This document shows positions 2,307 to 61,803 of a stretch of DNA of 64,000 bases, piece after piece. The DNA is from a virus. Its lineage: Duplodnaviria; Heunggongvirae; Uroviricota; Caudoviricetes. The notes beneath the pieces are model-generated. The model had not been told where the DNA came from, searched no databases, and saw only the letters and a list, made by a program, of their open reading frames with translations. Position 1 is the first letter of the stretch, and each line of letters begins with the position of its first letter. The stretch lies in the IMG/VR virus record IMGVR_UViG_2861084961_000001, one strand, 5' to 3'. The position numbers were made by a program, and so were the translations under genes.

Positions 2307-2412
2307 CTTTTAAAAGACACCACCAGAACAACTCCCTTCCGTTTCCACTTCCAAAAACTGCCACCAGTCGCTATCATCCGCTTATTGTGATAAGTAAGTA
2401 ACTACCTACCAG

Positions 2413-5809: not shown

Positions 5810-5884
5810 CAAGTGCCGCTAAAATAAGTAGATGATTACTTATCTTTCTGTAAGAATACTTTCATCTGTTAGCTAGGAGTTGGT

Positions 5885-6667: not shown

Positions 6668-6723
6668 TCTCTCCGCGCGTCGTTTTTTTACGCAAACAAT
6701 GATAGGTAAGTACAAGATTATCT

Positions 6724-9335: not shown

Positions 9336-10111
9336 AAATACAATAATAAGTATTTACTTACTTATCTTTTATGTATAAGATGACTTTGTTTTCGTTGAGA
9401 CGCGACTGTTTGAACTTAAATACAAGTGCAAACGAAGAAGTCTATCTGGCAGTAGCCTAATAAGCCAAACACCAGCGAGGTCAGTTTCCAGCCTCGTTAC
9501 CGAAATGGGACACACTGAGCGAGTGTGATTGCAGAACGCAGGAGGGAACATTCATGTTCCCTCCGATGAAGTAACAGAATGGGCGGTTGGTATATTTTCA
9601 ACTCCATATGACTCCCGGATTCTTAGCCACTGACCGCCCATCCTGTTACGTCATTTTGTTCAATTATGTCGTTTATACTGGGTTAAAAAGCGGCGACGTA
9701 GCCCGGCTGGTATGGTTAGCCAGCACACAACGTTGAGGCCATTACATTTTTATCAATTCTAAGGTTCTATTCACAGAGATACCGGCGAGCGTTGATATGT
9801 AACATGTTGGGCAAACATTCAATCGGAGTAGTGGCCTCAACGTTGTGAAGACAGGATTGTTGTGTAGGTTTAACCACTGTTGCCATTGGTGCCTGTTTTC
9901 ACAACAAATGATTCCATACATCACATTGTATAAATAACAAAGTAGGTGCTGTCCTCAGAAACATCATCTACTTAAAGATTTAGCCTTCTATTGAGCGAAG
10001 TCGAAAGCGTCTGGCACTAACGTAAAGTGCAAGTAGCGGTGCGTTTCCTGGCAGAAACTAACACCGCCGCGATTGGCACTGTTGAGTAATAAATACTGTC
10101 AGTGCTGAATT

Positions 10112-10186
10112 GATGGTGTAGCTCAGCGGTAGAGCAGTTGGCTGTTAACCAACTGGTCGGTGGTTCGAATCCACCCACCATCGCCA
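10112..10186 (+). tRNA. tRNA-Asn (anticodon GTT)
   Basis: Cloverleaf by eye: acceptor gatggtg/caccatc, anticodon loop ctGTTaa, T-loop ggttcgaat, CCA end. Confidence 0.8.
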
Positions 10187-10191
10187 ATTTA

Positions 10192-10278
10192 GGGGAGTTA
10201 GTCCGTAGAGGTAGCGGTGTAGACTGTAAATCTACTGTCATGGCGACTCGGGTGGTTCGACTCCATCACTCCCCACCA
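10192..10278 (+). tRNA. tRNA-Tyr (anticodon GTA), type II with long variable arm
   Basis: Acceptor ggggagt/actcccc, anticodon loop ctGTAaa, T-loop ggttcgact, CCA end. Confidence 0.75.
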
Positions 10279-10282
10279 AATT

Positions 10283-10358
10283 GCCGGTTTAGCTCAGTTG
10301 GTAGAGCGCCTGCCTTGTAAGCAGGATGTCAGCGGTTCGAGTCCGTTAACCGGCACCA
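10283..10358 (+). tRNA. tRNA-Thr (anticodon TGT)
   Basis: Acceptor gccggtt/aaccggc, D-arm agctcagttggtagagc, anticodon stem cctgc/gcagg with loop ctTGTaa, CCA end. Confidence 0.75.
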
Positions 10359-10582
10359 ATACAACGATAAGATCATTACGGTTAATCGTCGTTCATGTGC
10401 ACAATGACTGGTCGAAAGGTAGTGATCTTACCGTTGTGGTGGATTCGCAGACTGATGCGATAGCTTTCTTGGATGTTAGGGAAATGCGGCCGCAAATCTT
10501 CCCTTTCGCGAGCGGTGATCGTCCGTAGTCCTAATTGGCTGCACCGTATGCCGGAGATTCAGTACCGGCCACCACAACGGCC

Positions 10583-10669
10583 GGAGAGTAGGGAGCATGG
10601 TGCTCAAGCTGTCTTGAAAACCGCCCCATTGCGCAAGCGATGATGGTTCGATTCCATTACTCTCCGCCA
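10583..10669 (+). tRNA. Type II tRNA-like gene, anticodon TGA (Ser?), imperfect stems
   Basis: Acceptor ggagagt/actctcc, loop ctTGAaa, T-loop ggttcgatt, CCA; anticodon stem and variable arm pair poorly, may be non-canonical or pseudo. Confidence 0.5.
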
Positions 10670-11619: not shown

Positions 11620-11925
11620 TTCTTTTAGAAGACGTTTATATTTTTCTTTGTTGTATCATTTATCTGATTTAAATAGTCAAAAAGTAAAGATATTTCTTCT
11701 CTAAATTCGTTGTATTTTTTTCAATCAAAGAATCAGACAACTTACCAATCATTAAAACCTCTATAAAATGTACATTTCAAGGCAATCCTTACTGTAATCT
11801 ATTGTCATAATCACTTCAATTGTTTACCAGTCAATCAATAAGTTACTACATACTTATCAAAAAAATCTGTTTGTAGTATAGTCTGATATGTTCGAATCAA
11901 TATTTATAAAGGTATTTGTTAGGTT

Positions 11926-12381: not shown

Positions 12382-13483
12382 ATGAAAAATAGCTTTGACA
12401 GAGCACGCGCTGCGGAGAACACCTCAAAAGAGGCGATTGAGTATCTCGAAAGAGCATCTCAAATGCAGGCCGTTATGATCTCCCAGGTCAGCAATGACAT
12501 GAGATTCTCGGACGCATTCATGTTATTCACTCGCTTATCTCTGCTGATAACCAGACGTCGGCCAGAGATCGCTGTTCATTGTATTTTGATACATGTTTTG
12601 CCGCACATTGCTGATGTAAAAGTAAGTGACATTAATAGGTTCATGGTGAACCAACTGGTCAACCCCCTAATACTGGATGGCAAAATTGTTATGGGCCGCC
12701 GCGTTTTCTCTCTGATGAAGCAGTTCCTTAGCTGGTGCGCCTTCCAGGGGATGATAGACGTGTCACCGTTAAACGATATGTCACTAAACAAAGTTGCCGG
12801 TGGCGCAAAGCCCACACCTCGCGAGCGTAAGCTGACCGACGCAGAGGTATGGGTGTTCTGGAATATATGGGACTACTTCAATGTGTGCGCTGGTACAAAA
12901 TGGGCGGCCAGGCTGTGTCTTGTATCAGCAAGACGACCTGACGAAGTACTGCGGGCTAAAAAAGTGAGTTCAATCTTAAGCGTGGAGTTTGGAATCAAGG
13001 CAAGAGAAACAAGTCAGCACGTGAGCATTCGCTGCCTTTAAGCACATTAATGCGCACATGCATTGAAGAGTTGTTCGAATACGGTAAAAACAGCCAGTGG
13101 CTCGTGCCTTCGAATAAAAAATCGGGAAAGACCTTCCTATGTCTAAAGTGGCAATAGCCCAGGCATTACGTCGTATTCTGGAACGACCAGAACTGATGGA
13201 GCTTGAGCCATTTACACCCCGAGATTTGCGCCGTACTGCGCGTAGTTACTTCCCAGCATTAGGCATAAGCCAGGAGGTATCACGCAAAATCATGAACCAC
13301 AGTCTTGAGGGGATAGATCGGGTCTACGACCGGCACGATTATATGGACGAGATGCGAGACGCCTTAGAAAGTTTCTCGACGTACATCGCATCAATCGTAG
13401 AGCAACCGGATTTAGACGAAATTGACCACAAATTCAAGGGAGATCGTCTATCAACAGAGCTTATTCGTGTAAATTTTTCATAG
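12382..13483 (+). CDS. Tyrosine recombinase/integrase (P4-like), frame broken twice (around 13041 and 13139)
   Basis: C-terminal HSLPLSTLMRT..., FTPRDLRRTARSY..., IMNHSLEGIDRVYDRHDY resemble integrase catalytic region (R..H..R..Y); three frames all shifting -1. Confidence 0.6.
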
Positions 13484-13864
13484 AGACTTTATGGCCTCAA
13501 CAACCTTTTGTGATGCGCCTTTCTCTTTACCGAATCGCTCGTTATATGCAGCAAGAACCTGTTTTTCGTCCTCGTTAAGAGGAGCGGTGCCTTCTTTGTA
13601 TAAAAATGCTGCGAGTTCAGGTTGGCGTTCTTCCAGCACCATCATCATAAGACGACTTGGCTCAATACCCAGCGCCAGCGCCAGCGGACGAACCTTATCG
13701 ATAGGCAAAGGAATTTTGCCACTTTTAATTAAAGAAAGGTTGTTGGCATTTTTATAACCAATAAGTCTGGCTATTTGGGCCTGACTCATAGGTGAGGATT
13801 CAATCAGCCCTGCGATAAAAGCAGCATAGCGACTTTCTATAAATTCAATCTTGTTGTCAGACAT
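13478..13864 (-). CDS. XRE-family HTH transcriptional regulator (CI/Cro-like repressor candidate)
   Basis: Helix-turn-helix SQAQIARLIGYKNANNLSLIKSGK; divergent from downstream operon; palindromic ggtaagtgcttacc in its upstream region. Confidence 0.7.
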   Translation of the reverse strand: MSDNKIEFIESRYAAFIAGLIESSPMSQAQIARLIGYKNANNLSLIKSGKIPLPIDKVRPLALALGIEPSRLMMMVLEERQPELAAFLYKEGTAPLNEDEKQVLAAYNERFGKEKGASQKVVEAIKSL

Positions 13865-13894
13865 TGTTACAACCTTTGCGCGTTTAATTCTCTC

Positions 13895-13908
13895 TGGTAA
13901 GTGCTTAC
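13895..13908. promoter_or_regulatory. Palindromic operator candidate GGTAAGTGCTTACC in the XRE regulator promoter region
   Basis: Perfect 14 bp palindrome; same half-site as dispersed intergenic motif. Confidence 0.5.
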
Positions 13909-14115
13909 CGATATTACATCAAAGGTTAGGGTTGTAAAGCTATTATCATTTTTTTCGGCAGGCACTTGTAAGACCGAGCAAAGGTCCATGCATGGAGAAA
14001 AACTAGCCCCAAATAGGTAAGAAAATTAACTTGCATCTGATATGGATGTATTCAGTATTGATACAAATTTTAGTAGTATTCCTTACCATAGTATAAGTTA
14101 GAATGGATTGATTGA

Positions 14116-14328
14116 ATGAAAACCACTATTTCCAGCCTAATCGCTCTTGAGATCGGACACGTACAGAAATTAGCTGATGAGTGTGTAGCTGACATCCTCA
14201 CCGATCTACCGAATGAGCAGATTCAGGTTGGTGTGAATGACACAACTGGCTTTATATTCGAACTTAACAACAAACGCTTCACACTTCTCAATACCGGCTC
14301 CGGGTCTTTAGCCATCAGAATCTGTTAA
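14116..14328 (+). CDS. Hypothetical small protein (70 aa)
   Basis: ORF only. Confidence 0.3.
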   Translation: MKTTISSLIALEIGHVQKLADECVADILTDLPNEQIQVGVNDTTGFIFELNNKRFTLLNTGSGSLAIRIC

Positions 14329-14426
14329 CCCCTCTTCTCCCTGCGCGAATGGCTTAGTTCCCTGTTCGCGCAGTGCTACATTAAACACACTAGTAAATAA
14401 TTTGTTTTCATAACAAAGGATTAGCC

Positions 14427-16534
14427 ATGTCTAAAAAACGTTCCATCAAAGAGGTTCAGGACTTCCGTGACAGTGTAAAACGAGTAGTCGCTCTCCTTTC
14501 AGGTAAAAACATCCCTGTTGCAGAACGAGGGGACGACGCTTATGTACGCTATAACGATGATGGAGAGCCAATTCTCGTAAACATCCCATCAATCCCGGAT
14601 AACGCAACACCGGCATTGATGAATGCTGTGCGCGGATTTCTCGATCATGAGGTTGCTCACATTTTGTTTACCGATATTCGTGTGTCCAACAAAATGAGAG
14701 AAAAAGGACGCGTTCCTTCCTGGTCACTATGGAATGCCTTAGAAGACGTGTTCATCGAGCGAAAAATGGGGCAGGTCTTTAACGGAACGAGACGTAATCT
14801 GATGGCAACTCAGCGCCTTATAATCGAAAAAGTCTTTAAACCAAAGGCTTCAGAGGCTATTGATTATTGTGGCAAAGATCAGCGCGCGCTTTTTCTAAAC
14901 TTCTTTCTCTGTCCGGTTGTAAGAGCCTGGGATGGCCAAGCACCGTTCGTAGATTTCATGGATGAATACTGGCCTGTCATTGAGAAACCAATTTCATTAT
15001 TAAAAGAACATGGTATCGATGTGGCCGTGCGTAACATGTCTTGCACCGAGGATTGTGTAAAGGTGGCTGCGACCATAGCTAAGATCCTCAAAGACACTGA
15101 AAGTGAAAGCAAAGGTAAGGAGTCAGCTCCGGGAAAAACTTCCGATCCTTCAGATACTGACCAAACGGATGCCTCTGGAGAAAACAATGAAGACAACGAA
15201 GATCATGAGACACCCTCAGCGTTAGATAATCACAAATCTATCGAATCAGAATCACACAGTAAGCACAAACATGATAATAACGACAGTGATGATTCAGATA
15301 ATTCTGAATCATCAGAAACAATATTCGATGATACAGAAAATGATAAAGAGGTATCAGATTCTGATGCTTCTGATAACGCGGCGTCAGAATCATTAACCGC
15401 TGACCACGAAAAAAGAAAAACGACAGAAGACGGCTCTTCAGATATTCCAACTCCGTCAAAAATGAGTCTGGAAGAGGCTTTAGAGGAGCTGGATAGCATA
15501 GAAGATGAAGTCGGAGGCATGACAGAAGATGCTCTATCCGAAACGATTAAAAGCGAGTTAACAGAAAGCTCGAAAGCGAATACAGGCCATACAATCGCTC
15601 ATACGACTTCATCGGCTCGATTGATCAGGCAGAAGCCCATATCAAACGGCTTATTAAAACATTCTCCGATATTGATTTAGGAGGATATCCAATCAGCCGC
15701 TATCGCATCGTTCCTGAAGGCAACCAGCTCTTCGACAAATATATTGAAAAGCATCTTTCGTCAGGTGTTTCGTCGACGCTGGCAAAAGACCTGGAGCGAG
15801 CAATAGCAAGCAGAAACAGAGTTCAGTTTATACCGGGCCAGCGTCGGGGGCGCATTCATGGTTCTAGTATCTACAGATTAGCAATGAATGATGATCGCGT
15901 GTTTCGTAAAAAAGAAGAATCTAAAGCCGTTAACGCCTGTGTTCAACAAGTGATTGATTTATCAGGTTCAATGAGTGGTATAACGATACAATTGGCTCTT
16001 GCAAGTGCATATACCATCGCCGATGCCCTTGATCGAATAAATGTTCCCAACATTATCACCGGCTTCACTACATTTGGTAGTCATATGGCGGCAGGAGAAC
16101 TTAAGGCTGTCAAGTATGAGTTCTCTCGCTTTGAATCTTTAATGCTACCTATCATCAAAAATTGGAATGAAAAGGCAAATTCTCGCGAAGTTCGCTCACG
16201 TATGGGGTGCGTAGGCTACACATTCCCACTTCTTAATAACGTGGATGGTGAAAGCATAGCCAGCCTTGCATCGTTATTTTCTGGTCGCATGGAGGACAAG
16301 AAGATCATGCTTGTTCTAAGCGATGGCGCGCCGTGGGCTGTTGGGAGAGGTTTTGACGCTCATTTGCGTTCGGTTGCGAAGCAAATTGAAACGCAGACTG
16401 ACATTGATTTGATGGCAATTGGCATCATGACTGACGCACCGGAGAGATTTTACGCAAACCATGCCCTGGTAACGAGCGTTGATAGTCTTGGTTCATCTGT
16501 AGTTACTGAACTATCTCGTATCATTTTGAAGTGA
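14427..16534 (+). CDS. CobT-like vWA-domain protein with acidic Ser/Asp-rich linker; frame broken near 15550-15600
   Basis: C-terminal vWA MIDAS motif VIDLSGSMSG; long D/E/S-rich low-complexity region; conserved AACAAAGGATTAGCCATG start context; second frame is open upstream of 15884. Confidence 0.6.
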
Positions 16535-16629
16535 TTAGAACAGCCTTAATGATAAGTAATCACTTACGTTATTTGATGGTATATTTATATAAGAAGTTGA
16601 AAGCTCATTAGAAAACAAAGGAAAAACGC

Positions 16630-16902
16630 ATGACTACTACTGCACTGCAAAATGAAAAAAATCCTTCTGATTACCTTGTTTGCAAGTGGTGCGGAAAATC
16701 ATTTCACTATTTTAAGTCCCATGTAGCCAATGGTAATTGCGAGGGCATTCCTGAGTCAGTAAAAGATGCCGATCCTGACACCGTACTGAAAATGTACACA
16801 ACGCAGTTTCCAGATGAGCCAACGCTATCGAAAAAGGCACTTGATGCAATTCAAGCTAAACGTGCCGAGCAAAAAGCGAAATGGCCAAATCATCTGGCGT
16901 GA
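16630..16902 (+). CDS. Small zinc-ribbon-like protein (90 aa)
   Basis: CKWCGKSFHYFKSH...CEG cysteine/histidine cluster; conserved start context. Confidence 0.4.
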   Translation: MTTTALQNEKNPSDYLVCKWCGKSFHYFKSHVANGNCEGIPESVKDADPDTVLKMYTTQFPDEPTLSKKALDAIQAKRAEQKAKWPNHLA

Positions 16903-17864
16903 CCAATAGCCCAGGCTATACAGGCACAGTTGAGTACAAGACAGATCTGGTCGCAGCTCACGAACTGCTAAATGTAACGGTGAAAGAACTCGGAACAAAA
17001 CGTGGGACGCCGCTCATGGTTAGCGTCAACGTCAATACGCCGTTTCCAGAGTTCGTTCCAGAAGTGAAGAAGGGATACGTATATGGCGACTTCGAACTGA
17101 TCAAAGACATTTTCATGATGCTTGAACTTGGCATACCAGGCTATTTGTGGGGTCATGCAGGAACAGGCAAATCTTCATTGCCTACACAACTATGTGCTTT
17201 GCTCAATCGTCCGTTAATCCGTGCCCAACATACAGCATCAATGGAAGAGGCTCATGTTACGGGACAAATTCTGGCGCGTGATGGCTCTACGTATTTCGAG
17301 CCTGGCTTGCTTGCGCTCGCAATGAAGCATGGCTGGGTTTACCTCGCGGATGAATACGACTTTGCGTTTCCACAGATTCTTGGCGTGTATCAGCCAGTGC
17401 TGGAAGGTGAAGCGTTGGTCATCAAAGAGGCGACTCCAGAATGGCGTCGCATTACTCCGCATGAACGGTTTGCTTTCATTGGCACTGGCAACACGAACGG
17501 ATCTGGTGATGAAACCGGCTTGTACCAGGGTACAAACATCCAGAACGCCGCTAACTTTTCGCGTTTTGGCATCGTTTCGAATGTGAAATACATGAGCAAA
17601 GAGGCAGAGATCAACATGTTGATAAATGCCGGCATCGTGGATGAATACGCTGAAAAGATGGTTAAGTTTGCCGGTATCGTTCGCGATGGATACGAAGAAC
17701 ACCTGATCAGTCAGCCGATTGGCCCTCGTGAACTTTTGTTGTCGGCCAAGATTGGAATGATGCGAGGCGACTTTGTGACAGGTATTGAGCGTTCTTTCAT
17801 TAACAAACTCCCTTCAGCTTCTGCGCAAGCGGCACGTGAAGTTGTTCAAAAAATATTTGGTTAA
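16881..17864 (+). CDS. MoxR/CobS-like AAA+ ATPase
   Basis: Walker A GHAGTGKSS, Walker B WVYLADEYD; size and pairing with vWA protein. Confidence 0.75.
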   Translation: MAKSSGVTNSPGYTGTVEYKTDLVAAHELLNVTVKELGTKRGTPLMVSVNVNTPFPEFVPEVKKGYVYGDFELIKDIFMMLELGIPGYLWGHAGTGKSSLPTQLCALLNRPLIRAQHTASMEEAHVTGQILARDGSTYFEPGLLALAMKHGWVYLADEYDFAFPQILGVYQPVLEGEALVIKEATPEWRRITPHERFAFIGTGNTNGSGDETGLYQGTNIQNAANFSRFGIVSNVKYMSKEAEINMLINAGIVDEYAEKMVKFAGIVRDGYEEHLISQPIGPRELLLSAKIGMMRGDFVTGIERSFINKLPSASAQAAREVVQKIFG

Positions 17865-18043
17865 TCGTGCGTAAAGGATGTTTCGGCTCTCTTATCGCTG
17901 CTTCTGAAACTGGCAAGGCTTGTCTGGTGTGTCCAGACAAGCCCGATTGTCACCAATCAGCAAAAGAAGTTGCGATTTCGATGTATGGGAAGTTCGTAGG
18001 CTTCCCCAATGACAAAATCAAAAAACCAGAAAGGTAAAAACAC

Positions 18044-21000
18044 ATGAAGGCTCTGATGGTTCGAACTGACTTCTCTCTTGGGGAGTCGGCTCTAAAAGCA
18101 GAAAACGCGGTGAAGATTGCCAGAGAAGCTGGCTACACCGCTGTAATTTCGGCAGATAGCATGAATATTGCGAGTGTTATTCCACTACAACGTGCCGCTG
18201 GTGACGACATGGCGGTTATTTGTGGTGTGAAACTAAACATTGTTGATGATCCCACATACGAGCACCGGGCTAAACTTGCTAAAGAGTCTATGGGATGTAT
18301 GGAATCATTAGAGCGTGGGCGGAACTACTCCTTTACCGCTCTAATTAAAAATGAGCAGGGATATCGAGACATCTGCGAACTAATGACGGCGGCCAACACA
18401 CGAGAACAGTTCTACTTTGTACCGCGTCTCTCGCTCGAACAGTTGGTTTCTACATATGCCAAAGGCAACATCATCCTGCTAACTTCCGACATCGGTAGCG
18501 TGTTCCAACGCAACGATTTTGCAAAAATCATAAGCTCACTGATTACAGCGGGTGGAAAAGACAACTTCTATAGTGTGGTTTATCCGCACCCTACCCATTC
18601 TACGACCAGATTAACGTCCGGGCGATGAAAGTCGCCAGCGCACTGAAAATAGAGCCAGTAGCGTTCTATCCCGCTTATTACGAATCGATCGACGATGCAG
18701 ACATTAAAGACATTGCGCACATGGTTACGAACAACATCAAAATCGACCAGCCGCATCGTCTGCGTATCCCCACCAGCGAGATAACGCCGTCAATTGTCGC
18801 CGCCATCTCCTTGAGGCGCTGAAAGCCTTCTCCGTTCGCATGGATGTGCCGGTAACAGCTGCAATGGCCTCAACAACGCAGGATACCATTATCGATGCCT
18901 GCACATGGCGCTGGCATGAATTGCCACCAGCACTGCCAAAGATGGCAGACGACGAGCCTGCAACTCTGATGAAACTGGCCGTTGCTGGGCTGCGTAAACG
19001 TCTTACCACAAAAGAGTTTGGCTACACACCACCGGCTTCTGAGAACAGGGTTTATGTTGAGCGACTTAAGTACGAAATGGATACGCTGACTCGCCTGGGA
19101 TTCTGTGGTTACTTCCTGATGGTGCGCGATCTGATGAATCATAGTCGTGAAACTGGCATTCCCGTTGGGCCTGGTCGTGGTTCCTCTGCTGGCTCTTTGG
19201 TGGCATGGTGCATAGGCATAACCAACGTCGACCCAATCCGTCACGGTCTTCTGTTTGAACGTTTCATCAACCCTGAGCGTCTCGACTTGCCGGATGCGGA
19301 TTTGGACTTCAGCCAGGCACGTCGCCATGAAGTGATCGAGTATCTGAATGAACGCTACGGCGAAGATTACGTTGCGGGTATTCCGAACTTCACATATCTG
19401 GGCGCAGCCTCTGCACTACGTGACACCGCTCGTATTTATGGTGTGGAGTCCGCAGATATGGCGGTATCAAAGAACTGAAGAACGTCGAGGATGATAGCCT
19501 TCCATTGGAAGAACTGCGCGAACAACTGGCAAGTCTCGACAAATACGCAACAAAATATCCTGATGCATTCAATGCAGCCTGCAAGTTACAAAGCCTTATG
19601 CGTGGCTTTGGTAGACATGCGGCAGGGATGATCGTAGCAGGTGTTCCTCTGACAGAACGTACACCGGTTGAACGACGTGGTGACGCGCGTTGTATCGCAT
19701 TTGACAAGCGTTACTGCGAGGCTATGGGCCTAATTAAGCTGGACGTGCTTGGCCTGGCAACTCTCGATTTGCTCGATAGTGCAAAACGCTACATAAAAGA
19801 GAACACAGGTGAAGATATCAATCTTGATGCCATTTCTCTTGAAGATCGCAAGGTGCTGGATGGTTTTGCTGCTGGGTACACTCAAGGTGTTTTCCAGCTT
19901 GAATCAGGCCCAATGCGCAAGCTGCTTAAAGATTTAGGTGGTGGAATTGAGCCAATGAGCTTTAAAACGGTCGTCGCTACGACTGCGCTCTTCCGGCCGG
20001 GGCCAATTCAGTCAGGCATGTTGGATGACTATGTTTCTGTAGCCAAAGGCTTTATGAAGCCGGAATCATTACACCCCGTTCTTGATGAACTTACCGCAGA
20101 AACAAATGGCGTGATTCTCTATCAGGAACAGACGATGAACGCGACTCGATTGCTTGCTGGCTTCACAATGGCTGAAGCTGACGGTGTTCGTAAAGCGATC
20201 GGCAAAAAGGACATGGAAAAATGAAGAGCATGGGCGAGAAGTTCATCGTTCAGGCTCAAGCTGGCTGGATAGACGTTGAGCTGGAAGATGGCACTACACA
20301 GCGCATTCACCGTGCGGAACATTTTAAATGCGAAGACGGAACTCTGAAAACTGTCGAAGAGGCACTTGAGTACGGCGCAAAACTACCTATAAACGCAGTA
20401 CGCGTTACAGCGTCACATCCAGGGCTATCAGAGATGAAAGCGAAGGAGATCTGGACCGCATTCGAAAAAAATGGAGCCTACCAGTTCAACAAATCACACT
20501 CTGTTGCTTACTCCTTAATCAGTTATCAATCTATGTGGTTGAAAACTCATTATCCCGCAGAGTTTTCGCTGCTGCTCTCACTATTCTTGGCGAAGATAAA
20601 CACCAGGGGCTGGTTAAAGATGCGCTGACCTATGGTATTCGCGTATTGCCACCAGACGTTAACGTGTCATCTAACCGAATCGAGATCCGCACGCTTGAAG
20701 ATGGCAGCCAGGTGCTGTATGCGCCCTTCTCTGCTGTGAAGGGGTGTTCTGAGAATGGCTGCCAGGCCATCATGAGAGCGCGAGAAAGGGTTGGCGGCAA
20801 ATTCGAGTCACTGGCGCAATTCGAAGAAGCTGTCGAGAAACGTGCCTGTAATAGTCGAGTGCGCGAATCACTGCAAAAAGTAGGTGCGTTTGCGTCCATA
20901 GAGCCAGGTAGTCTGCCAGCAACTGATCCAGAGCGTCTCCGCGACCAAGCAGAATTGATGGGAAACCTTGTCATAGATGCAGTTAAAGCCTCACGTCCGT

Positions 21001-21556
21001 TTGAGATGAACCCCAAACGTTCGGCTGAGATTAACGTGCTCATGACACGGATGGCGGCTGAAATGGGCTTAGGTGATGAACTAATCCGCCCAGCATTGGT
21101 ATTAAGCCGAAAATCATGATCATTCTGGACAATGCGAACGGCAATGATGCTCGAACCGGTTACTTCATGGAGAACGGATACGACGATTTTAAGGCCAAGC
21201 TATTGACGGCTGGAGATTTACGCATGGGCGATCTCTATGTCACAGGCGTTTGCAAAAAGGTGAAAGACAAAGAAAAGGACTACACCAAAGACGAGATCGG
21301 CCAGTTCACCGACTTTATGCGTGAAGAGATCAATCTGGTGCGTCCGACCTATGTGCTGACGTGTGGCAGCCGGGCAACGGCATTGTTTAACAACAAAAAC
21401 AAGCCATCCGATTTGGTCGGCAGGAAGGAGTATCTTCCAGACCTTGACGTTACTGTCTTTTACGGGTTTAACCCCAACATTCTTTACTTCAGACCTGAAG
21501 AGGGAGAACGACTAGAAGCGATATTAGCCGACGTAGCAGAAACTATTAAGACGTGA
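18044..21556 (+). CDS. dnaE: DNA polymerase III alpha-like (DnaE-type) replicative polymerase, split into 7 frames by -1 shifts
   Basis: PHP-like N-terminus, [42 protein letters not shown] polymerase core motif; summed length ~1170 aa matches DnaE; consecutive ORFs 18044,18625,18840,19505,20221,20535,21116 each shift frame by -1. Confidence 0.7.
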
Positions 21557-22115: not shown

Positions 22116-22232
22116 TTTTTGATAGATAATAAGTAAGTACTGATCTATCATTGAGCAGCTCGAAAGAGCCACGAATGAACGAAAGCCCAACGCGCATAGC
22201 GCCATCGGCCAAATCACAACAAGGAGAAACAC

Positions 22233-25636: not shown

Positions 25637-25700
25637 TATCTCTTGAAAATATATAAGTACTTACTTATTATTTTCGCATAACAACCACATAGGAAAACAC

Positions 25701-30137: not shown

Positions 30138-30192
30138 TCGCCTATTCATAACTAACAAAATAAGTAAACACTAACCACAAAAGGAAAAACAC

Positions 30193-30468: not shown

Positions 30469-30682
30469 GTTTACAGTAAAATTTATATAAGTTAGTATCT
30501 ACCTATCATGAAGATTTTATTGAATACTTGTTGCTCATCGTGTCAATAGCTTTTGTCATCGACTGCATTTTCACTGGTGTCATTCGTAAAGTCTTTTCCC
30601 CGGTGAACGACGTAGTCATAAACGCTTTGGCTATCGTGCTCGTATTTAATTCAGCATTTGATGTAATCAAAGAGGTGGCAGC

Positions 30683-31278: not shown

Positions 31279-31809
31279 CCGCTGACAGCATACACAATCA
31301 ACTGCCGCTGATAGCATATCGAGAGTCTATCTCACCGCTCACAGCATACTTTACTCGATTTTTACCGCTGACAGCATACTTAAGGCATTGCATGAATAAT
31401 GTGTACCGGTATGGGTATAACCAGAACAAAATTACCGCTGGCAGCATACGAAGGTCTGACATATGCCATTAATTACCGCTGATAGCATATCCAAACAAAA
31501 TTCCTCAATAAAACACCGCTGACAGCATACGTTCTATCAGGGAGCAGCAGGCAATAAATGCCTTTCACTACAAGTAATCAGCGCAATGGCAATAGAATGT
31601 TAGTGAGCGCAAACCTATATGGAATGCACTCTTCGAGGTTAGTAACCACTGGGGAGGTATAAAAGAGCATTGAGTGGTGATAGATGATTTACCGCTCACG
31701 GCATACGTTCATCTCACTATACCGCTGGTAGCATATCTTTAACCGTTCACAGCATACTTTTCAGAAAAATAGCCGCTGATAGCATACATTTCACCGCTGA
31801 CAGCATATC
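31279..31809. repeat. Iteron array: 12 copies of ~15-19 bp repeat CCGCTGACAGCATAC (variants) in two groups (7 + 5), downstream of repA
   Basis: Counted by eye at approx 31279, 31305, 31335, 31366, 31435, 31474, 31516, 31691, 31722, 31742, 31773, 31793. Confidence 0.85.
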
Positions 31810-32901
31810 AAAGCAGTTTGAGACTATTGGAAAGGATCTCAATCATCTTGATATTTTCAGGCGTCAAATTCTGTGAAAGTTCGGTTATCTTATTGATAAT
31901 GTTCTGTTTGGCATCAATTTCCCCGGCTTTCTCATCTGGTTTTTTGGGTTCGATGTCTTCAGGTTTTGGCGGTGCGACTTTGAGTTTTGGATTGCGGCTG
32001 TGAATCTGGATATAGATCGACCGCCCTCGCTTAATCTCGCTGTATTCGAGATAACCCAAATCTTGGAGAGCTTTTAAGCCGTTACGTATAGTCTGATTCT
32101 GCGAGCTGACATTCCTGCTACTCAAATTGAGTCGCGCACGCAATCGAGCAAGCGATACCGGCGCAGGCTTGGTTGGAAGACTTTCGATGAAGGTGTACAG
32201 AGCCTGTGCTGTTTCTTTGCGTGGTAGCTTATTGATAACCTTTAACTGTAAAAGAACCTTATGGTCAAAGCGATATAGTTCGGCCAGCTTCGGTTCTGCA
32301 TAGAACACCACCGTATCTTTCTGCTCGTTGTAGTCCACGCTATTGATGAGGTGCACCATCAGAAGCGAGATCTTGTTAGAGCCGTCGACATTCTTTTCTT
32401 CATACGTTCTCTGGAAAGACAGAGTGGTACGCATAATCTTCAAAAGACTGTTTGTAAGCCGGTCGCGGAGTGTTTTGCGGATCTGTGACGATGGATAGCC
32501 ACAAAACTTCGCAAATTTCGTGATGCTTAACTCGACACGACCGTTAGGTTCGCCGTATTCTGCCAGCGAACGCACAACGCCCACCCACGTTTTGAAATCA
32601 TGATCCATGTCGAGACGAGGACCGGTTATCTTGATATCGGAATAGCCTTCAGAACGGGCTACTTCGAGCTGAACAAGCTCCTTTGAAGCATCGATCTCAT
32701 TTGGCTTGTTACGCTTGCTGTATTTTGTCCCTTGAGCGTTGGCACGAACAACCCCAGCCGCATCAACGCAATTGGTTGGACTGTATTGTTGCTATTAGGG
32801 ACAAGTTCCCCTGTGTACAATTCAAGGGAACCTTCTTCAAAGTTGTCGAGATTATCTTCTACTTCTTTGTTATTTTTACCTTTTTTATTTTTTGTGGACA
32901 T
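31808..32901 (-). CDS. repA: Replication initiator RepA (iteron-binding), probable frame break near 32650-32760
   Basis: Minus-strand ORF 31808..32608 flanked on both sides by iterons; N-terminal Lys-rich segment MSTKNKKGKNNK starting at 32901 is in -1-related frame; larger ORF start at 33021 lies inside iterons and is rejected. Confidence 0.7.
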
Positions 32902-33866: not shown

Positions 33867-34120
33867 CCCTCCAGATCGCATATTGGCGTAGATAGAATCT
33901 ACGCCCCCTCAAAATAGCTCTCATAGCGTTCTACAGTGATTCTGTCTTATTTTTAGTCATACAGACAAGCAAAGTTGCGCCACGATAAATAGGTATATAC
34001 TTACTTATAAATTTTGTATATTAAGACGCTCGTTTCATTCCTAACATACCGTTATGCATAGTTGTTTACCTTCTCATTGCTCTTAAAATTTGTATCAAAA
34101 TAACCACAAAGGAAAAACAC

Positions 34121-38654: not shown

Positions 38655-38688
38655 TTTCATTGATAGGTAAGTGCTTATCTATTAACAT

Positions 38689-43237: not shown

Positions 43238-43306
43238 TTGTAGGTAGTTATCTATCTATGTATATTGTGTCGGCGCGTTAAATTTCTGAAACAACTATCC
43301 GTTTTT

Positions 43307-43331: not shown

Positions 43332-43408
43332 ATCTATCTGGTCTTGTTCTCTCAATAAATGTAAACTCACACGATGAATAAGTAATTACTTATCTCTGTG
43401 AGGTTTTT

Positions 43409-48057: not shown

Positions 48058-48227
48058 CGTTCCCCTACTGAAAATAAAGCCCATAGAGAGCTTTATAGTG
48101 CTGGGTAAGCTAACCCATACCCAGCACCACAAAAACGCGCCAGAGAGCTTCTTGTTCGCATTTCTGGCGCGTTTTATTTGATTGCCATACATAAAATCAA
48201 ATGCAAAAATAGGTAATCACTTACCTA

Positions 48228-48833
48228 TTGAGAAAGAAGATGATTGCAGCCGAAAAAATCAAACAGCGAAAGCGCGACAACTCTCTTCGTGACCTCTGGA
48301 GAACACCTGATTGGCTGTTTTCTGCCATTCAACGTTATCTTGGGGTGACATTTGATGTTGACGTTGCCTGCAACAAGGACAATGCAAAGCTGCCTAATTT
48401 CATAGGCGTTGAGCGTGATGCTTTGAAATCTGAATGGGGACAGCCAGGTACAATTGCCTTCCTCAATCCACCCTACTCCAAAATCTCCCCCTGGATTGAT
48501 GCTGCTATACGTGAGCAGGCTCGCGGAGTTACAACAGTGATGCTAATTCCTCAATCCCTCGATACAAAGTGGTATGAGCGTGCAACAGAGTATGCGAATG
48601 AGACGATTATTCTGTCTGGTGGCCGCGTAGCGTTTGTCGAGCCTGACGTCAATTTGGGTCAGGTAGAAGTAAACATCAACCCCGGTGGCAGTATGCTCGT
48701 TGTTTTTCGAGGATTCTGTCAGGACGCTGGGCACTCTATAAGCAAGATCCCTTTGGACGTAATGAAAAGTCTGGGAGGGTATGATCCTGCGAATGTGGTC
48801 AGGAAAAAAAGACCATCAAAGAAGGCTGCTTAG
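48228..48833 (+). CDS. Phage-type DNA N6-adenine methyltransferase (orphan)
   Basis: Catalytic motif FLNPPYS; ~200 aa; no adjacent restriction endonuclease. Confidence 0.7.
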   Translation: MRKKMIAAEKIKQRKRDNSLRDLWRTPDWLFSAIQRYLGVTFDVDVACNKDNAKLPNFIGVERDALKSEWGQPGTIAFLNPPYSKISPWIDAAIREQARGVTTVMLIPQSLDTKWYERATEYANETIILSGGRVAFVEPDVNLGQVEVNINPGGSMLVVFRGFCQDAGHSISKIPLDVMKSLGGYDPANVVRKKRPSKKAA

Positions 48834-48858
48834 TTTGTTCTGGCGAGTGTAATTAACC

Positions 48859-48912
48859 TGCTTCTGTATATAAATAACTACATATTAATTATTAATATAC
48901 GGAAGCAGGCTG
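48859..48912. repeat. Large hairpin cctgcttctgtatat...atatacggaagcagg, second copy of element at 2249..2306
   Basis: Near-identical stems in both copies. Confidence 0.6.
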
Positions 48913-49018: not shown

Positions 49019-49249
49019 ATGTCATACCCGACCAATGTTGTTGCGCTCGTAGAGAGCGATTTTCTGGCTAAGGCTCGTGAAATGATGAAAGATCGCGAGC
49101 AGGCTTTCAACTTGTACGAATGGGCAATTAAGTGCTTGCATCTTGGGGAGCATCGCGAACTTGTTGAACAGCTTTTAGGTGAGTTGATCAACGAGGTGTT
49201 TGCCTTGAATGTTCAACTACATGGTCGAGAAAATAACCAATCGAAATGA
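49019..49249 (+). CDS. Hypothetical protein (76 aa)
   Basis: ORF with RBS AAGGAAAACTAACATG. Confidence 0.4.
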   Translation: MSYPTNVVALVESDFLAKAREMMKDREQAFNLYEWAIKCLHLGEHRELVEQLLGELINEVFALNVQLHGRENNQSK

Positions 49250-49830
49250 TAGATAAGTACAAACTATTCATAAGATGGATTGTAAGTGCTAAGATCTGAT
49301 AGTTTCCAGTCGTAGACTGGAGACTCGACCTGATGGGTGGGGGTAAGCGTCACTGGCGTCAGGTTTAAAAAAGCTCACTACCAGCGTAGAACCGGTGCCG
49401 TTTAGGTGTCGGGGAAGGGGGAACCAAAGTGAGCGGAGACAAGGGTCACTTTATGATTGTCGAGTCTGGGATGTTTCGAGAGGTTGAATCCAGTACTCCC
49501 CTTCATAAAGTGTGGGAAGATCTCGGTTCTGGGGTGCTGTCATCCATAACTTCCCAAGTCTAAGCTGGCAGTAGACTTAGACCATAGCTTTTCAGGTTAT
49601 GAAACGACCAGGTTGGTGAGGAATTTTATACTCACCTCCCTGGGAGAGTATTACCTGAAAAGACAACCTCTCACTTCGTTCGAGGTGAACTTCACTCACT
49701 TCGTTCGTTCAGTTCAGGTTTATAAAAACCTGTACTGGGAAGTAATTTGTTTATTTTAATAATTATTACACGCACGCGTGTGCGCACGCGCGAGGAAAAA
49801 ATCGGCGCGGCGCTTGATTCAGGAGTTTAT

Positions 49831-50421
49831 ATGACGTCGAAGACACCAGCCCGGTCGCAAGCAAAAACTCGCAAAAAAGACAAAAACAAAAATTCTCCCC
49901 GCACCAATCCCACAACGCCTGTCGTAGAGTTCAATCCCCAGCTTAAAACCGTGAAAATCTTCAGTGATGGCTCTTGCCTTAAAAATCCGGGTGGCCCGGG
50001 CGGTTACGGTATAGTTCTCCAGTATCGTGGTGAGGAACGCGAGTTCTCAGATGGTTTTCATAGCACCACCAATAACCGCATGGAGATGATGGGGGCACTT
50101 ATCGGGCTGGAGCGTTTGAAATATCCATGCAACGTTATTTTGCACTCTGATAGCCAGTATCTGAAAAACGGCATGACACAGTGGATGAAATGGTGGAAAC
50201 GCAATGGATGGATGACTTCTGACAAAAAACCGGTAAAGAATGTTGATCTGTGGAAGCGTCTGGATGAGGCCGCAAGTCGACATAATGTTCGCTGGAAGTG
50301 GGTTAAAGGTCACGCCGGGCATCGTGAAAATGAAATATGTGATCGACTCGCGAAGATCGCAGCTTTTTCCGCAGCAGATATGCCTCACAAGAAAGATATT
50401 GGTTTTGTTTATAACAAGTAG
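49831..50421 (+). CDS. rnhA: Ribonuclease HI with short basic N-terminal extension
   Basis: [62 protein letters not shown] closely match E. coli RNase HI; start at ATG 49831 rather than ORF start 49747. Confidence 0.85.
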
Positions 50422-50569
50422 TAAGTAAGTGTTTACCTATCATTTTAAATCATGTATCTTATCGGCGTCAGGATGACAATGTGTCGGTAAGACACAGTTC
50501 CAGGATGGAACGAGAAAGGCGGCTGGCAATCGCCAGCCGCAACTCTTTCTGACACTGGATGGAGTCCAC

Positions 50570-61413: not shown

Positions 61414-61803
61414 ATGGGCTTCCCTTCTCCTGCGGCGGATTATGCTGAGAGCCGTATTTCTCTTGATCAGCAGATAATTAGACATCCTTCAGCGACCTAC
61501 TTCTTGAGGGCAGCTGATAGCCATCATCGTGAGGGAATATTGCAGGGTGCATTGCTGGTGGTCGATTCCTCACTCACTCCTGTTGATGGATCTCTTCTTG
61601 TATGTGCTCTGGATGGGGAATATCGCGTAAAAAGATACCGGAAGTATCCACGTCAGCATCTGGAGGATTTAAGAACTGGTAAGAAGGAAGCATTGCCAAA
61701 GGATGATGATGGATGCACGGGCAGCAATGCCGTGTTTGGTGTGATCACTCACATTATCAACGACGCAAGAAGTGGCGAGTTTGATGATTGTCCTGTGATG
61801 TAG
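61414..61803 (+). CDS. UmuD'-like protein (HumD-like; starts at the position corresponding to the UmuD self-cleavage site)
   Basis: MGFPSPAADYAESRISLDQQIIRHPSATYF matches UmuD residues ~25 onward; Ser-containing ADS motif; no umuC-like gene follows. Confidence 0.7.
   Translation: MGFPSPAADYAESRISLDQQIIRHPSATYFLRAADSHHREGILQGALLVVDSSLTPVDGSLLVCALDGEYRVKRYRKYPRQHLEDLRTGKKEALPKDDDGCTGSNAVFGVITHIINDARSGEFDDCPVM

Follow-up and report, generated by a model that had tools for sequence, protein, structure and literature searches.

Dispersed intergenic palindromes and a candidate global repressor in an SSU5-like phage-plasmid

The element and its palindrome family

The stretch of DNA analyzed here, 64,000 nucleotides of the virus record IMGVR_UViG_2861084961_000001 (IMG/VR; the whole stretch is hereafter called the window), carries at 13478-13864, between an integrase gene and a short divergent gene, the gene for a small regulator of the XRE type, and the subject of this report is a 20-bp imperfect palindrome, ATARGTAAGTACTTAYCTAT, that recurs at about 16 places in the window, all of them intergenic, and that lies, as a shorter core, on the promoter of the XRE gene itself. 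The window is approximately 97% identical to Escherichia phage Cyrano (pLF82), 99% identical to the Escherichia coli plasmid NZ_AP017612, and approximately 78% identical to Salmonella phage SSU5 and to Klebsiella phage-plasmids, and these identities assign it to a phage-plasmid of the SSU5 supercommunity, of the E. coli (pSLy3) type. It represents the non-structural half of the element, encoding parA, a helicase, a primase, a ligase, four tRNAs, the integrase, the XRE protein and cobT/S, along with dnaE, uvsY, gp32, recA, repA, sbcCD, nrdAB, thyX, and accessory genes, nearly all of them on the plus strand. The gene calls are heuristic, and indels relative to Cyrano occur about once every 400-500 nt (the alignment has 19 gaps opened within 8 kb and 39 within 19.6 kb), splitting several open reading frames (ORFs): single ORFs of Cyrano are broken into several throughout the window, for example the integrase (12382-13483), cobT (14427-16534), and dnaE (16881-21556), reflecting either indel errors of the assembly or gene decay.

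The palindrome, often preceded by A-rich sequence or by tG, is present far above chance. With up to three mismatches, the 20-mer ATAGGTAAGTACTTACCTAT has six matches in the window versus 0.00 in 100 dinucleotide shuffles, and the degenerate pattern ATARGTANNNNNNTAYYTAT, with up to two mismatches, gives 43 strand-hits (about 20 loci) versus 1.88 +/- 1.68 in the shuffles. An unbiased k-mer scan, with no prior motif, places TAAGTAAGTA at the top of the over-represented 10-mers (observed 6, expected 0.06). The first-pass annotation of this DNA had already described a palindrome recurring across the intergenic gaps, proposing as its test a shuffled control of the same AT-rich intergenic composition. 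With shuffling confined to the intergenic DNA (9.9 kb, 41% GC), 14 sites are observed versus 0.71 +/- 0.88 expected, with a maximum of 5, and the copies at the positions proposed do form one repeat family. No site was found in the 54.6 kb of coding DNA of the window, and 20 of 20 candidate loci are intergenic, with only about 10% of the window being non-coding. All of the dispersed sites are flanked by co-directional genes, and an accessory region of about 20 kb (54.5-64 kb in the window, 84.6-105 kb in Cyrano) is devoid of sites. The coordinates proposed earlier need some amendments: a site placed at 2273 is in fact the AT-rich loop of another, longer inverted repeat (2252-2305), two sites placed at 22121 and 33977 exist but have their true centers at 22129 and 33989, and three sites, at 2390, 11838, and 30487, had been overlooked.

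Whole genomes were scanned for Cyrano, SSU5, and Klebsiella pJN2-26 (and, separately, for an Acinetobacter element discussed below), yielding 28, 25, and 27 pattern matches, respectively, of which approximately 21-23 in each remain as clear sites once doubtful matches are dropped. The sites of the three elements occupy orthologous gaps, and several of the Klebsiella copies are perfect palindromes. The late structural operon also holds sites, one in the gap between the terminase and portal genes (terL-portal), 10 nt before the portal ATG, and others after the major capsid gene, before the tail genes, and before the holin gene. Over 14 orthologous sites, the palindromes of the window are identical to those of SSU5 at 0.90 and to those of Klebsiella at 0.85, compared to 0.73 and 0.68, respectively, for the flanks of 30 nt on each side; conservation is thus higher in the sites than around them.

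The placement of the palindromes would in some respects also suit RNA hairpins in long plus-strand transcripts, serving as processing or stability signals or as targets of a translational repressor such as an FljA-like protein: the genes around them are co-directional, several sites are only 1-13 nt away from a ribosome-binding site or start codon, and FljA of Salmonella acts on the fliC mRNA. However, selection for a hairpin on the plus strand would tolerate G·U pairs and deplete A·C pairs, while the mismatched arm positions over 80 sites are of the G·U type in 47 cases and of the A·C type in 48. Over the same sites, R at position 4 is uncorrelated with Y at position 17, and mismatches are found in left and right halves alike (35/36 in SSU5, 45/47 in Klebsiella). 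Since the half-sites vary independently, the sequence pattern argues for DNA sites of a dimeric protein rather than for RNA hairpins. What is kept across sites and genomes is the sequence itself, beyond mere pairing; the copy on the XRE promoter, on the opposite strand, straddles the start site and so cannot be transcribed whole; the promoter-type sites are upstream of their start sites; the distances to start codons spread from 1 to 129 nt; and an Rfam scan of the window returned tRNAs only, with no match for the palindromes. We therefore regard a function as hairpins as very unlikely, and it is highly probable that the palindromes, as DNA, bind a global regulator that the element itself encodes.

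Other classes of elements were considered and dropped. A structured RNA element was dropped on the counts just given (G·U 47 versus A·C 48, arms without covariation, no Rfam family). For intrinsic terminators, the stems are AT-rich and a T-run directly after them is missing at most sites, in agreement with the earlier remark that the stems would terminate poorly; the terminators found near the sites at 25649 and 38663 are separate GC hairpins. Sites of a tyrosine recombinase were dropped as the arms are too short for core sites, and as 25 palindromic recombination sites would scramble the genome. Iterons were dropped as well, those of this replicon probably being a separate repeat around repA, ACCGCTGACAGC, as were sites of restriction-modification (R-M) systems.

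The XRE gene, its promoter and the candidate binders

The product of the XRE gene matches PHROG 8, annotated as transcriptional regulator (6.6e-12), and its Pfam scores are below threshold (HTH_19, 18.9 bits versus a cut-off of 30.2; HTH_37, 16.4 versus 27); no match was found for it in NCBIfam or, by sequence, in the PDB. The AlphaFold2 model has a pLDDT (predicted local distance difference test) of 86-90 over residues 11-80, and the structures matched by Foldseek are C.AhdI (TM score 0.80, root-mean-square deviation 1.5 Å), P22 c2 (0.80, 1.6 Å), and 434 Cro (0.78, 1.9 Å), with weak E-values of at least 6e-3. Judging from the model, the protein is predicted to possess the five-helix, lambda-repressor-like (Cro/C1) helix-turn-helix (HTH) fold. 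It has no S24 cleavage domain. The XRE proteins of four lineages, E. coli, Klebsiella, Yersinia pestis pMT1, and Salmonella Typhi pHCM2, are 57-66% identical overall, with the HTH stretch GYKN.N.LSLIKSGKIPLP, nearly invariant, being their best conserved part. The gene is present in all plasmid forms, and more than 780 plasmids in PLSDB, pHCM2 and pMT1 among them, carry the module of XRE gene and integrase.

The promoter assigned to this gene is the only sigma-70-like match in 13400-14400 (TTTACA-16-TAATAT; Table 1), and it is conserved in the same four lineages amid an otherwise diverged spacer (the comparison with pMT1 and pHCM2 covers the surroundings of the XRE gene). The core palindrome, GGTAAGTGCTTACC, starts one base past the -10 element and spans the position at which the XRE transcript is predicted to begin. 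This is the perfect palindrome that the first-pass annotation had seen in the promoter region, now placed at 13896-13909 instead of 13895-13908, with 6-bp arms and a 2-bp center. It is kept as (C/T)(G/A)GTAAG(C/T)ACTTACC in the four lineages, as part of a conserved block, CTTTACAA...TGTAATATC(G/A)GTAAG(C/T)ACTTACCA. Two additional half-sites had been proposed nearby, at 14013 and 14081, and these are not conserved in Klebsiella, pMT1, or pHCM2 and are probably due to chance. A putative operator of the dispersed family is thus found on the candidate repressor's own promoter in four lineages, and in Acinetobacter three copies of the palindrome type found there lie upstream of the XRE gene.

The latter case is presented by the phage-plasmid CP137931 of Acinetobacter baumannii, distant but syntenic, whose XRE homologue is 48% identical (helix FKRPNVLSMIKSG versus YKNANNLSLIKSG). 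The enterobacterial motif was not found in the scan of this genome. It has instead another 20-bp palindrome, ATCAGTCAGTACTGACTGAT, in approximately 30 intergenic copies (GTCAGTACTGAC observed 16 times, expected 0.01), at like places, including the terL-portal gap, the positions after the capsid gene and before the holin gene, and those upstream of cobT, cobS, and the parB-like gene, and the spacer upstream of the XRE gene holds three of the copies. As ATCAGTCAGTACTGACTGAT is found both genome-wide and at the Acinetobacter XRE gene, the motif and the XRE-promoter sites have changed together. A relative from Klebsiella quasipneumoniae, whose XRE protein is only 47% identical, keeps both the helix NANNISLIKSG and the enterobacterial type of motif. 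There is also an E. coli lineage, P0032 (L021, contig ABZCOC010000014.1), in which the recognition helix is changed (YKYQNQVSFIKSG) and the dispersed sites lean to TATGTATGTA left halves; this lineage may be a separate immunity group.

Expression in the prophage state can be followed in the published RNA-seq data for Cyrano in the LF82 lysogen (PMC9928086, table S1), which describe a related element rather than the exact one. With a prophage median of 9.8, the XRE gene (CYRAN_45) reaches 96, i.e., 10-fold above background, and genes directly behind a palindrome have a median of approximately 8; none of the genes above the cut-off of 49 used in that study is directly behind a site. Above that cut-off are toxin-antitoxin pairs, the parA operon, repA, the XRE gene, and some of the accessory genes. 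This pattern fits a repressor present in the lysogen, the XRE protein being the only HTH candidate well above background.

The XRE gene, earlier taken for the only obvious repressor gene, is one of several candidate regulator genes of the element, since a protein of the FljA family (CYRAN_114; PF03614, E 1e-80) and two proteins with ParB_N domains (CYRAN_119 and CYRAN_120; E 3e-13 and 1e-8) are encoded elsewhere in it, outside the window. The palindromes could be DNA sites for the tandem ParB_N proteins, for the FljA-like protein, or for an unrecognized protein, the XRE promoter then being shut off by that protein. The FljA-like protein is present in all enterobacterial relatives and the ParB_N proteins everywhere, a ParB-like protein also in Acinetobacter, and a site is found immediately upstream of the parB-like gene in both E. 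coli and Acinetobacter. Precedents exist in the OB operators of KorB, a protein of the ParB family, in the IncP plasmid RK2 and in the centromere repeats bound by SopB in N15, both of these being scattered palindromes at variable distances from promoters, with global effects on expression. The sites described here are likewise palindromic and scattered over a phage-plasmid genome at variable promoter distances, but the binder in those systems belongs to the ParB family and is expressed in the maintenance state, while here, in the lysogen, CYRAN_119 does not rise above the detection floor (5.0) nor CYRAN_120 above background (9.5), with the genes behind the sites being silent, and partition in the maintenance state is served by a separate parA module. 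As to the FljA-like protein (18 in the lysogen), no matches were found in Acinetobacter, despite the analogous regulon there. Moreover, a protein seated on the -35 region of lytic promoters would keep the lytic genes repressed, a role unfit for a factor of the lytic phase only. Phyletic patterns do not separate the three candidates in enterobacteria, all three being found everywhere, and it is the absence of the FljA-like protein from Acinetobacter and the lysogen expression, and only these, that discriminate among them. On this evidence, a binder other than the XRE protein appears unlikely.

We consider a host transcription factor, common to enterobacteria and different in Acinetobacter, to be extremely improbable as the binder. 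Such a factor would account for the motif being constant in the elements of E. coli, Klebsiella, and Salmonella (SSU5), with the XRE-promoter copy also kept in Y. pestis pMT1, and being changed in Acinetobacter. However, a scan for exact ATARGTAAGTACTTAYCTAT in one genome each of 185,579 species (596 Gb), an exact match being a weak test, returned five loci, two of them on contigs from Kluyvera whose lengths (109 and 92 kb) are in the range of phage-plasmids, one on a 5.3-Mb scaffold of K. pneumoniae, and two, in Flavobacterium and Sodaliphilus, matching the approximately two expected by chance. Within the reach of this exact-match scan, nothing points to a regulon on host chromosomes. We know of no enterobacterial regulator with the ATARGTAAGTACTTAYCTAT consensus.

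The gene divergent from the XRE gene (Table 1) is a candidate for a cro-like gene, an antirepressor gene, or an early gene of the immunity region. In LB, its homologue CYRAN_46 is at log2 4.3, and in macrophages it has climbed to 10.8 at 6 h. A UmuD-like S24 peptidase without an HTH domain (PF00717; PHROG 811) is encoded at 61414-61803, its homologue CYRAN_98 is expressed approximately 15-fold above background in the lysogen, and Cyrano is inducible by ciprofloxacin. The XRE protein has no cleavage domain of its own, and this peptidase may be its partner in sensing the SOS response.

Positions of the sites and the proposed mode of action

Two types of position can be distinguished among the sites (Table 1). 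At 5824, 9346, 16552, 33989, and 54470, the palindrome is followed 4-6 nt on by an extended -10-like element, and these elements are kept in SSU5 and Klebsiella as TGTAAGAAT, TGTCATAAT, and TGCCATAAT; in Klebsiella, 9 of 22 sites have TG at offset +5 past the palindrome, versus a background of approximately 1-3. The palindromes of this type are centered near -30, over the -35 region, with no recognizable -35 hexamer, and, as predicted from the sequence, such a position would be typical of steric repression. The sites at 2390, 30487, and 48209, as well as the one in the terL-portal gap, are too close to the start codon for a promoter to fit in between, and therefore, at the DNA level, can act only on transcription arriving from upstream.

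The fixed distance to an extended -10 element and the lack of a recognizable -35 in this subset of sites would also suit an activator box, replacing the -35 of phage middle or late promoters in the way of the Lpa inverted repeat of P1 or the MotA box of T4 and bound by an activator of the lytic phase, and only lytic genes follow the sites. Yet at most of the sites a suitably spaced -10 element is missing, several have no promoter room at all (10 nt in the terL-portal gap, 11 nt at 48209), the copy on the XRE promoter is placed for repression, over the start site, and a center near -30 is again typical of steric repression. Activation by way of these sites is thus quite improbable.

The proposal of the first-pass annotation, that a single repressor controls many operons through dispersed operators, holds in part. 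There is one family of sites, present also on the XRE promoter, the motif has changed jointly with the XRE-promoter sites in Acinetobacter, and the lysogen expression pattern agrees with it. That the XRE protein is the binder, that it represses by binding, and that bound sites act as roadblocks is what we infer. Many of the sites are away from promoters, either within the late operon or so close to a gene that only 1-13 nt separate them from its start codon. A scheme with a single operator at each operon promoter is thus too simple, and a roadblock role, resembling that of stoperators, is needed.

In the scheme we propose, the XRE repressor would be made in the plasmid-prophage state from its own sigma-70 promoter, and its dimer would limit that promoter through the weaker 14-bp core over the transcription start, while occupying the stronger 20-bp sites among the lytic genes of the plus strand. 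Sites over the -35 region of extended -10 promoters (5824, 9346, 16552, 33989, and 54470) would block initiation, and those in tiny gaps within operons or abutting a ribosome-binding site (2390, 30487, 48209, and terL-portal) would act as roadblocks to read-through. The outcome would be that approximately 85 kb of plus-strand lytic genes are silent, with site-free units expressed, in a dormant virus of approximately 100 kb. We consider it reasonably probable, though well short of certain, that the palindromes are the operators of one such global repressor encoded by the element, likely a dimer of the 128-residue XRE protein, with the entire mechanism as outlined, roadblocks included.

A number of observations weigh against this repressor scheme. 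CYRAN_34, behind the homologue of the 5824 site (the one with the most deviant center), is expressed at 44 in the lysogen, the one clear exception among the genes behind sites. The ParB_N and FljA-family proteins are as widespread as the XRE protein in enterobacterial relatives, and the site upstream of the parB-like gene is only 17 nt away from it. The spacing of half-sites differs at a few sites (43376 and 25649), which is awkward for a rigid dimer. The P0032 lineage gives a mixed picture as to covariation with the XRE helix, its dispersed sites drifting toward TATGTATGTA but the operator on its XRE promoter being still of the GGTAA...TTACC type (this lineage is represented by 20 kb of sequence, and the variant is in no PLSDB record). 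SSU5, finally, has no XRE gene but retains intact sites. This element, a plaque-forming phage when isolated, lacks exactly the module of the integrase, the XRE gene, and the 70-residue gene, and from its sequence looks like a repressor-less derivative. As its identity to pHCM2 and pMT1 stays at 94% as far as the very edge of the module, the deletion looks recent, and the case is uninformative on the decay of sites rather than contrary.

Table 1. Coordinates of the palindromic sites and of the features at the XRE locus in the window.
Feature	Position	Strand	Remarks
ATAAGTAAGTAACTACCTAC	2390..2409		ends 12 nt before ATG of CYRAN_31 homologue; no promoter room; orthologous sites in SSU5 and Klebsiella
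ATAAGTAGATGATTACTTAT	5824..5843		after primase gene; extended -10 TGTAAGAAT 5 nt on; putative promoter-overlapping operator
ATAGGTAAGTACAAGATTAT	6702..6721		right half degenerate; upstream of gene preceding ligase gene
ATAAGTATTTACTTACTTAT	9346..9365		followed by TGTATAAGAT; putative promoter/operator of conserved leader and tRNA cluster (10112-10669); 20/20 identical in SSU5
ATAAGTTACTACATACTTAT	11838..11857		upstream of glutaredoxin gene
XRE/Cro-C1-type HTH protein, 128 aa, candidate global repressor	13478..13864	-	homologue of CYRAN_45; PHROG 8, predicted fold
Core palindrome GGTAAGTGCTTACC	13896..13909		one base after -10 of XRE promoter; proposed autoregulatory operator
XRE promoter	13911..13938	-	-35 TTTACA 13938-13933; 16-nt spacer; -10 TAATAT 13916-13911
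70-aa gene divergent from XRE gene	14116..14328	+	phrog_2627
ATAAGTAATCACTTACGTTA	16552..16571		between cobT and cobS; TGGTATATT 5 nt on
ATAAGTAAGTACTGATCTAT	22129..22148		between uvsY and gene for gp32-like single-strand-binding protein
ATATATAAGTACTTACTTAT	25649..25668		12 nt past intrinsic terminator that follows recA; 20/20 identical in SSU5
Weak or possible site ATAAGTAAACACTAACCACA	30160..30179		left half good, right half poor
ATAAGTTAGTATCTACCTAT	30487..30506		ends 1 nt before ATG of CYRAN_60 homologue
ATAGGTATATACTTACTTAT	33989..34008		followed by TGTATATT; putative promoter/operator upstream of sbcD; orthologues TGTCATAAT (SSU5) and TGCCATAAT (Klebsiella)
ATAGGTAAGTGCTTATCTAT	38663..38682		upstream of nrdA; GC hairpin and T-run after
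Other weak candidate	43240..43259		
Variant, perfect 16-bp palindrome ATAAGTAATTACTTAT	43376..43395		half-sites 4 bp closer; upstream of thyX
ATAGGTAATCACTTACCTAT	48209..48228		ends 11 nt before ATG of adenine methyltransferase gene
Other weak candidate	49249..49268		
GTAAGTAAGTGTTTACCTAT	50421..50440		after RNase H gene; conserved TGTATCTT downstream
ATAGGTAAATACTTACTTAA	54470..54489		extended -10 TGTAAGAAT 4 nt on; putative promoter/operator upstream of Ead/Ea22-like gene

Relation to known systems, and other repeats

Systems in which a single repressor acts at many dispersed operators are known, and the closest functional parallel is the stoperators of Cluster A mycobacteriophages (L5 gp71, Bxb1 gp69), of which 20-30 are distributed genome-wide in short intergenic gaps, a few serving as promoter operators and most blocking elongation, with the motif and the repressor diverging together (PMC6550527). 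The sites of L5 are 13-14 bp in length, have no dyad symmetry, are oriented with transcription, and are bound by a monomer. The element described here is similar in its dispersed sites in short gaps (approximately 21-23 clear sites and 25-28 pattern matches per genome), in most of these being off promoters, and in the joint divergence of motif and repressor, and some of the Cluster A phages are also extrachromosomal, with parABS. It differs in that its sites are not asymmetric, oriented 13-14-mers but 20-bp palindromes with independent half-sites, implying a dimer and no orientation, and also in its Gram-negative hosts and in the Cro/C1-type fold predicted for the repressor. The block of elongation is proposed for this element by analogy.

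Among phage-plasmids, the closest parallel is P1, a plasmid prophage silenced by C1 at many operators over a genome of approximately 100 kb, with the c1 gene having an operator of its own. The operators of C1 are asymmetric 17-mers, ATTGCTCTAATAAATTT, located at promoters, and C1, which is not of the XRE type, works with Lxc, Coi, and Ant. Common to both elements would be a plasmid prophage kept silent through one repressor at many scattered operators, one of these on the repressor's own gene, while the motif here is unrelated, palindromic, and present also inside late operons, and the candidate repressor has the Cro/C1 fold; neither motif nor fold thus matches the asymmetric 17-bp operator and the C1 family (a C1 homologue was not searched for). 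The repressors of lambdoid phages (cI, 434, P22 c2) and the C proteins of R-M systems resemble the XRE protein in their DNA-binding fold, in palindromic operators of 14-20 bp, and in autoregulation via an operator on their own promoter, but their operators are confined to one or two immunity regions, compared to 25-30 genome-wide here, and, unlike the lambdoid repressors, the XRE protein has no S24 domain, a separate UmuD-like S24 protein being encoded elsewhere in the element.

With P1 and L5 as precedents, the arrangement is a useful extension and not a new principle. What appears to be new is the palindromic, dimer-type nature of the proposed operators and roadblocks, dispersed genome-wide in a family of Gram-negative phage-plasmids that is large and as yet uncharacterized. 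In the searchable literature, we found no earlier description of the motif, of an SSU5 repressor, or of the lysis-lysogeny control of SSU5-like elements. These elements are common in clinical Enterobacteriaceae, including S. Typhi (pHCM2) and Y. pestis (pMT1). If correct, the repressor scheme would provide a defined operator motif and a named candidate repressor, with a testable map of promoters and roadblocks, it would make immunity groups predictable from sequence, it would explain why SSU5 behaves as a lytic phage, and it would represent a Gram-negative, palindromic counterpart to the mycobacteriophage stoperators. A broader generalization, which we offer as tentative and on balance doubtful, is that the phage-plasmids of the SSU5 family (pHCM2, pMT1, and the resistance-carrying elements of Klebsiella and E. 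coli) would all be silenced by such a symmetric stoperator system, employing a small XRE dimer without a cleavage domain and approximately 25-30 palindromes at promoters and at intra-operon roadblocks. Repressor and palindrome would have co-diverged, with the enterobacterial and Acinetobacter types being immunity groups, and induction would proceed via the UmuD-like S24 protein or the divergent 70-residue gene and not via self-cleavage of the repressor.

Other repeats and conserved non-coding elements are present in the window. One example is a second inverted repeat, found at 2252-2305 and 48858-48909, in which CTGCTTCYGTATAT, an AT-rich loop of approximately 25 nt, and ATATACRGAAGCAG are followed by T-rich sequence. 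It is located at module boundaries, in three copies in Cyrano (31175, 78095, and 108357), two in SSU5, and three in Klebsiella, and looks like a bidirectional terminator or a site for another protein. Another example is the iteron-like repeat mentioned above, five copies of which (31278, 31364, 31515, 31793, and 32922) flank repA (31808-32608, minus strand). A non-coding stretch of approximately 450 nt upstream of the RNase H gene (49270-49746; 78710-79146 in SSU5) contains a conserved block, ctgatgggtgggggtaagcgtcactggcg, has no Rfam match, and may represent an RNA not described so far. From the 9346 site/promoter to the tRNA cluster runs a leader (9366-10111) that is highly conserved in SSU5 and Klebsiella (TTGTTTTCGTTGAGACGCGACTGTTTGAAC...), contains no long ORF, and may be a processed leader or a small RNA. 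A start-codon context, (GGA)AAAACACATG, occurs 11 times (4622, 7160, 18038, 22227, 25695, 30187, 34115, 41142, 51350, 52071, and 54526), with the related 10-mer AAAACACATG counted 9 times versus 0.19 expected, and looks like a shared translation-initiation region. Finally, the repeat AATGATTCCATAC is found as one inverted pair (12252/12271) and as three single copies (8896, 9908, and 18297), and it is also over-represented in Klebsiella pJN2-26.

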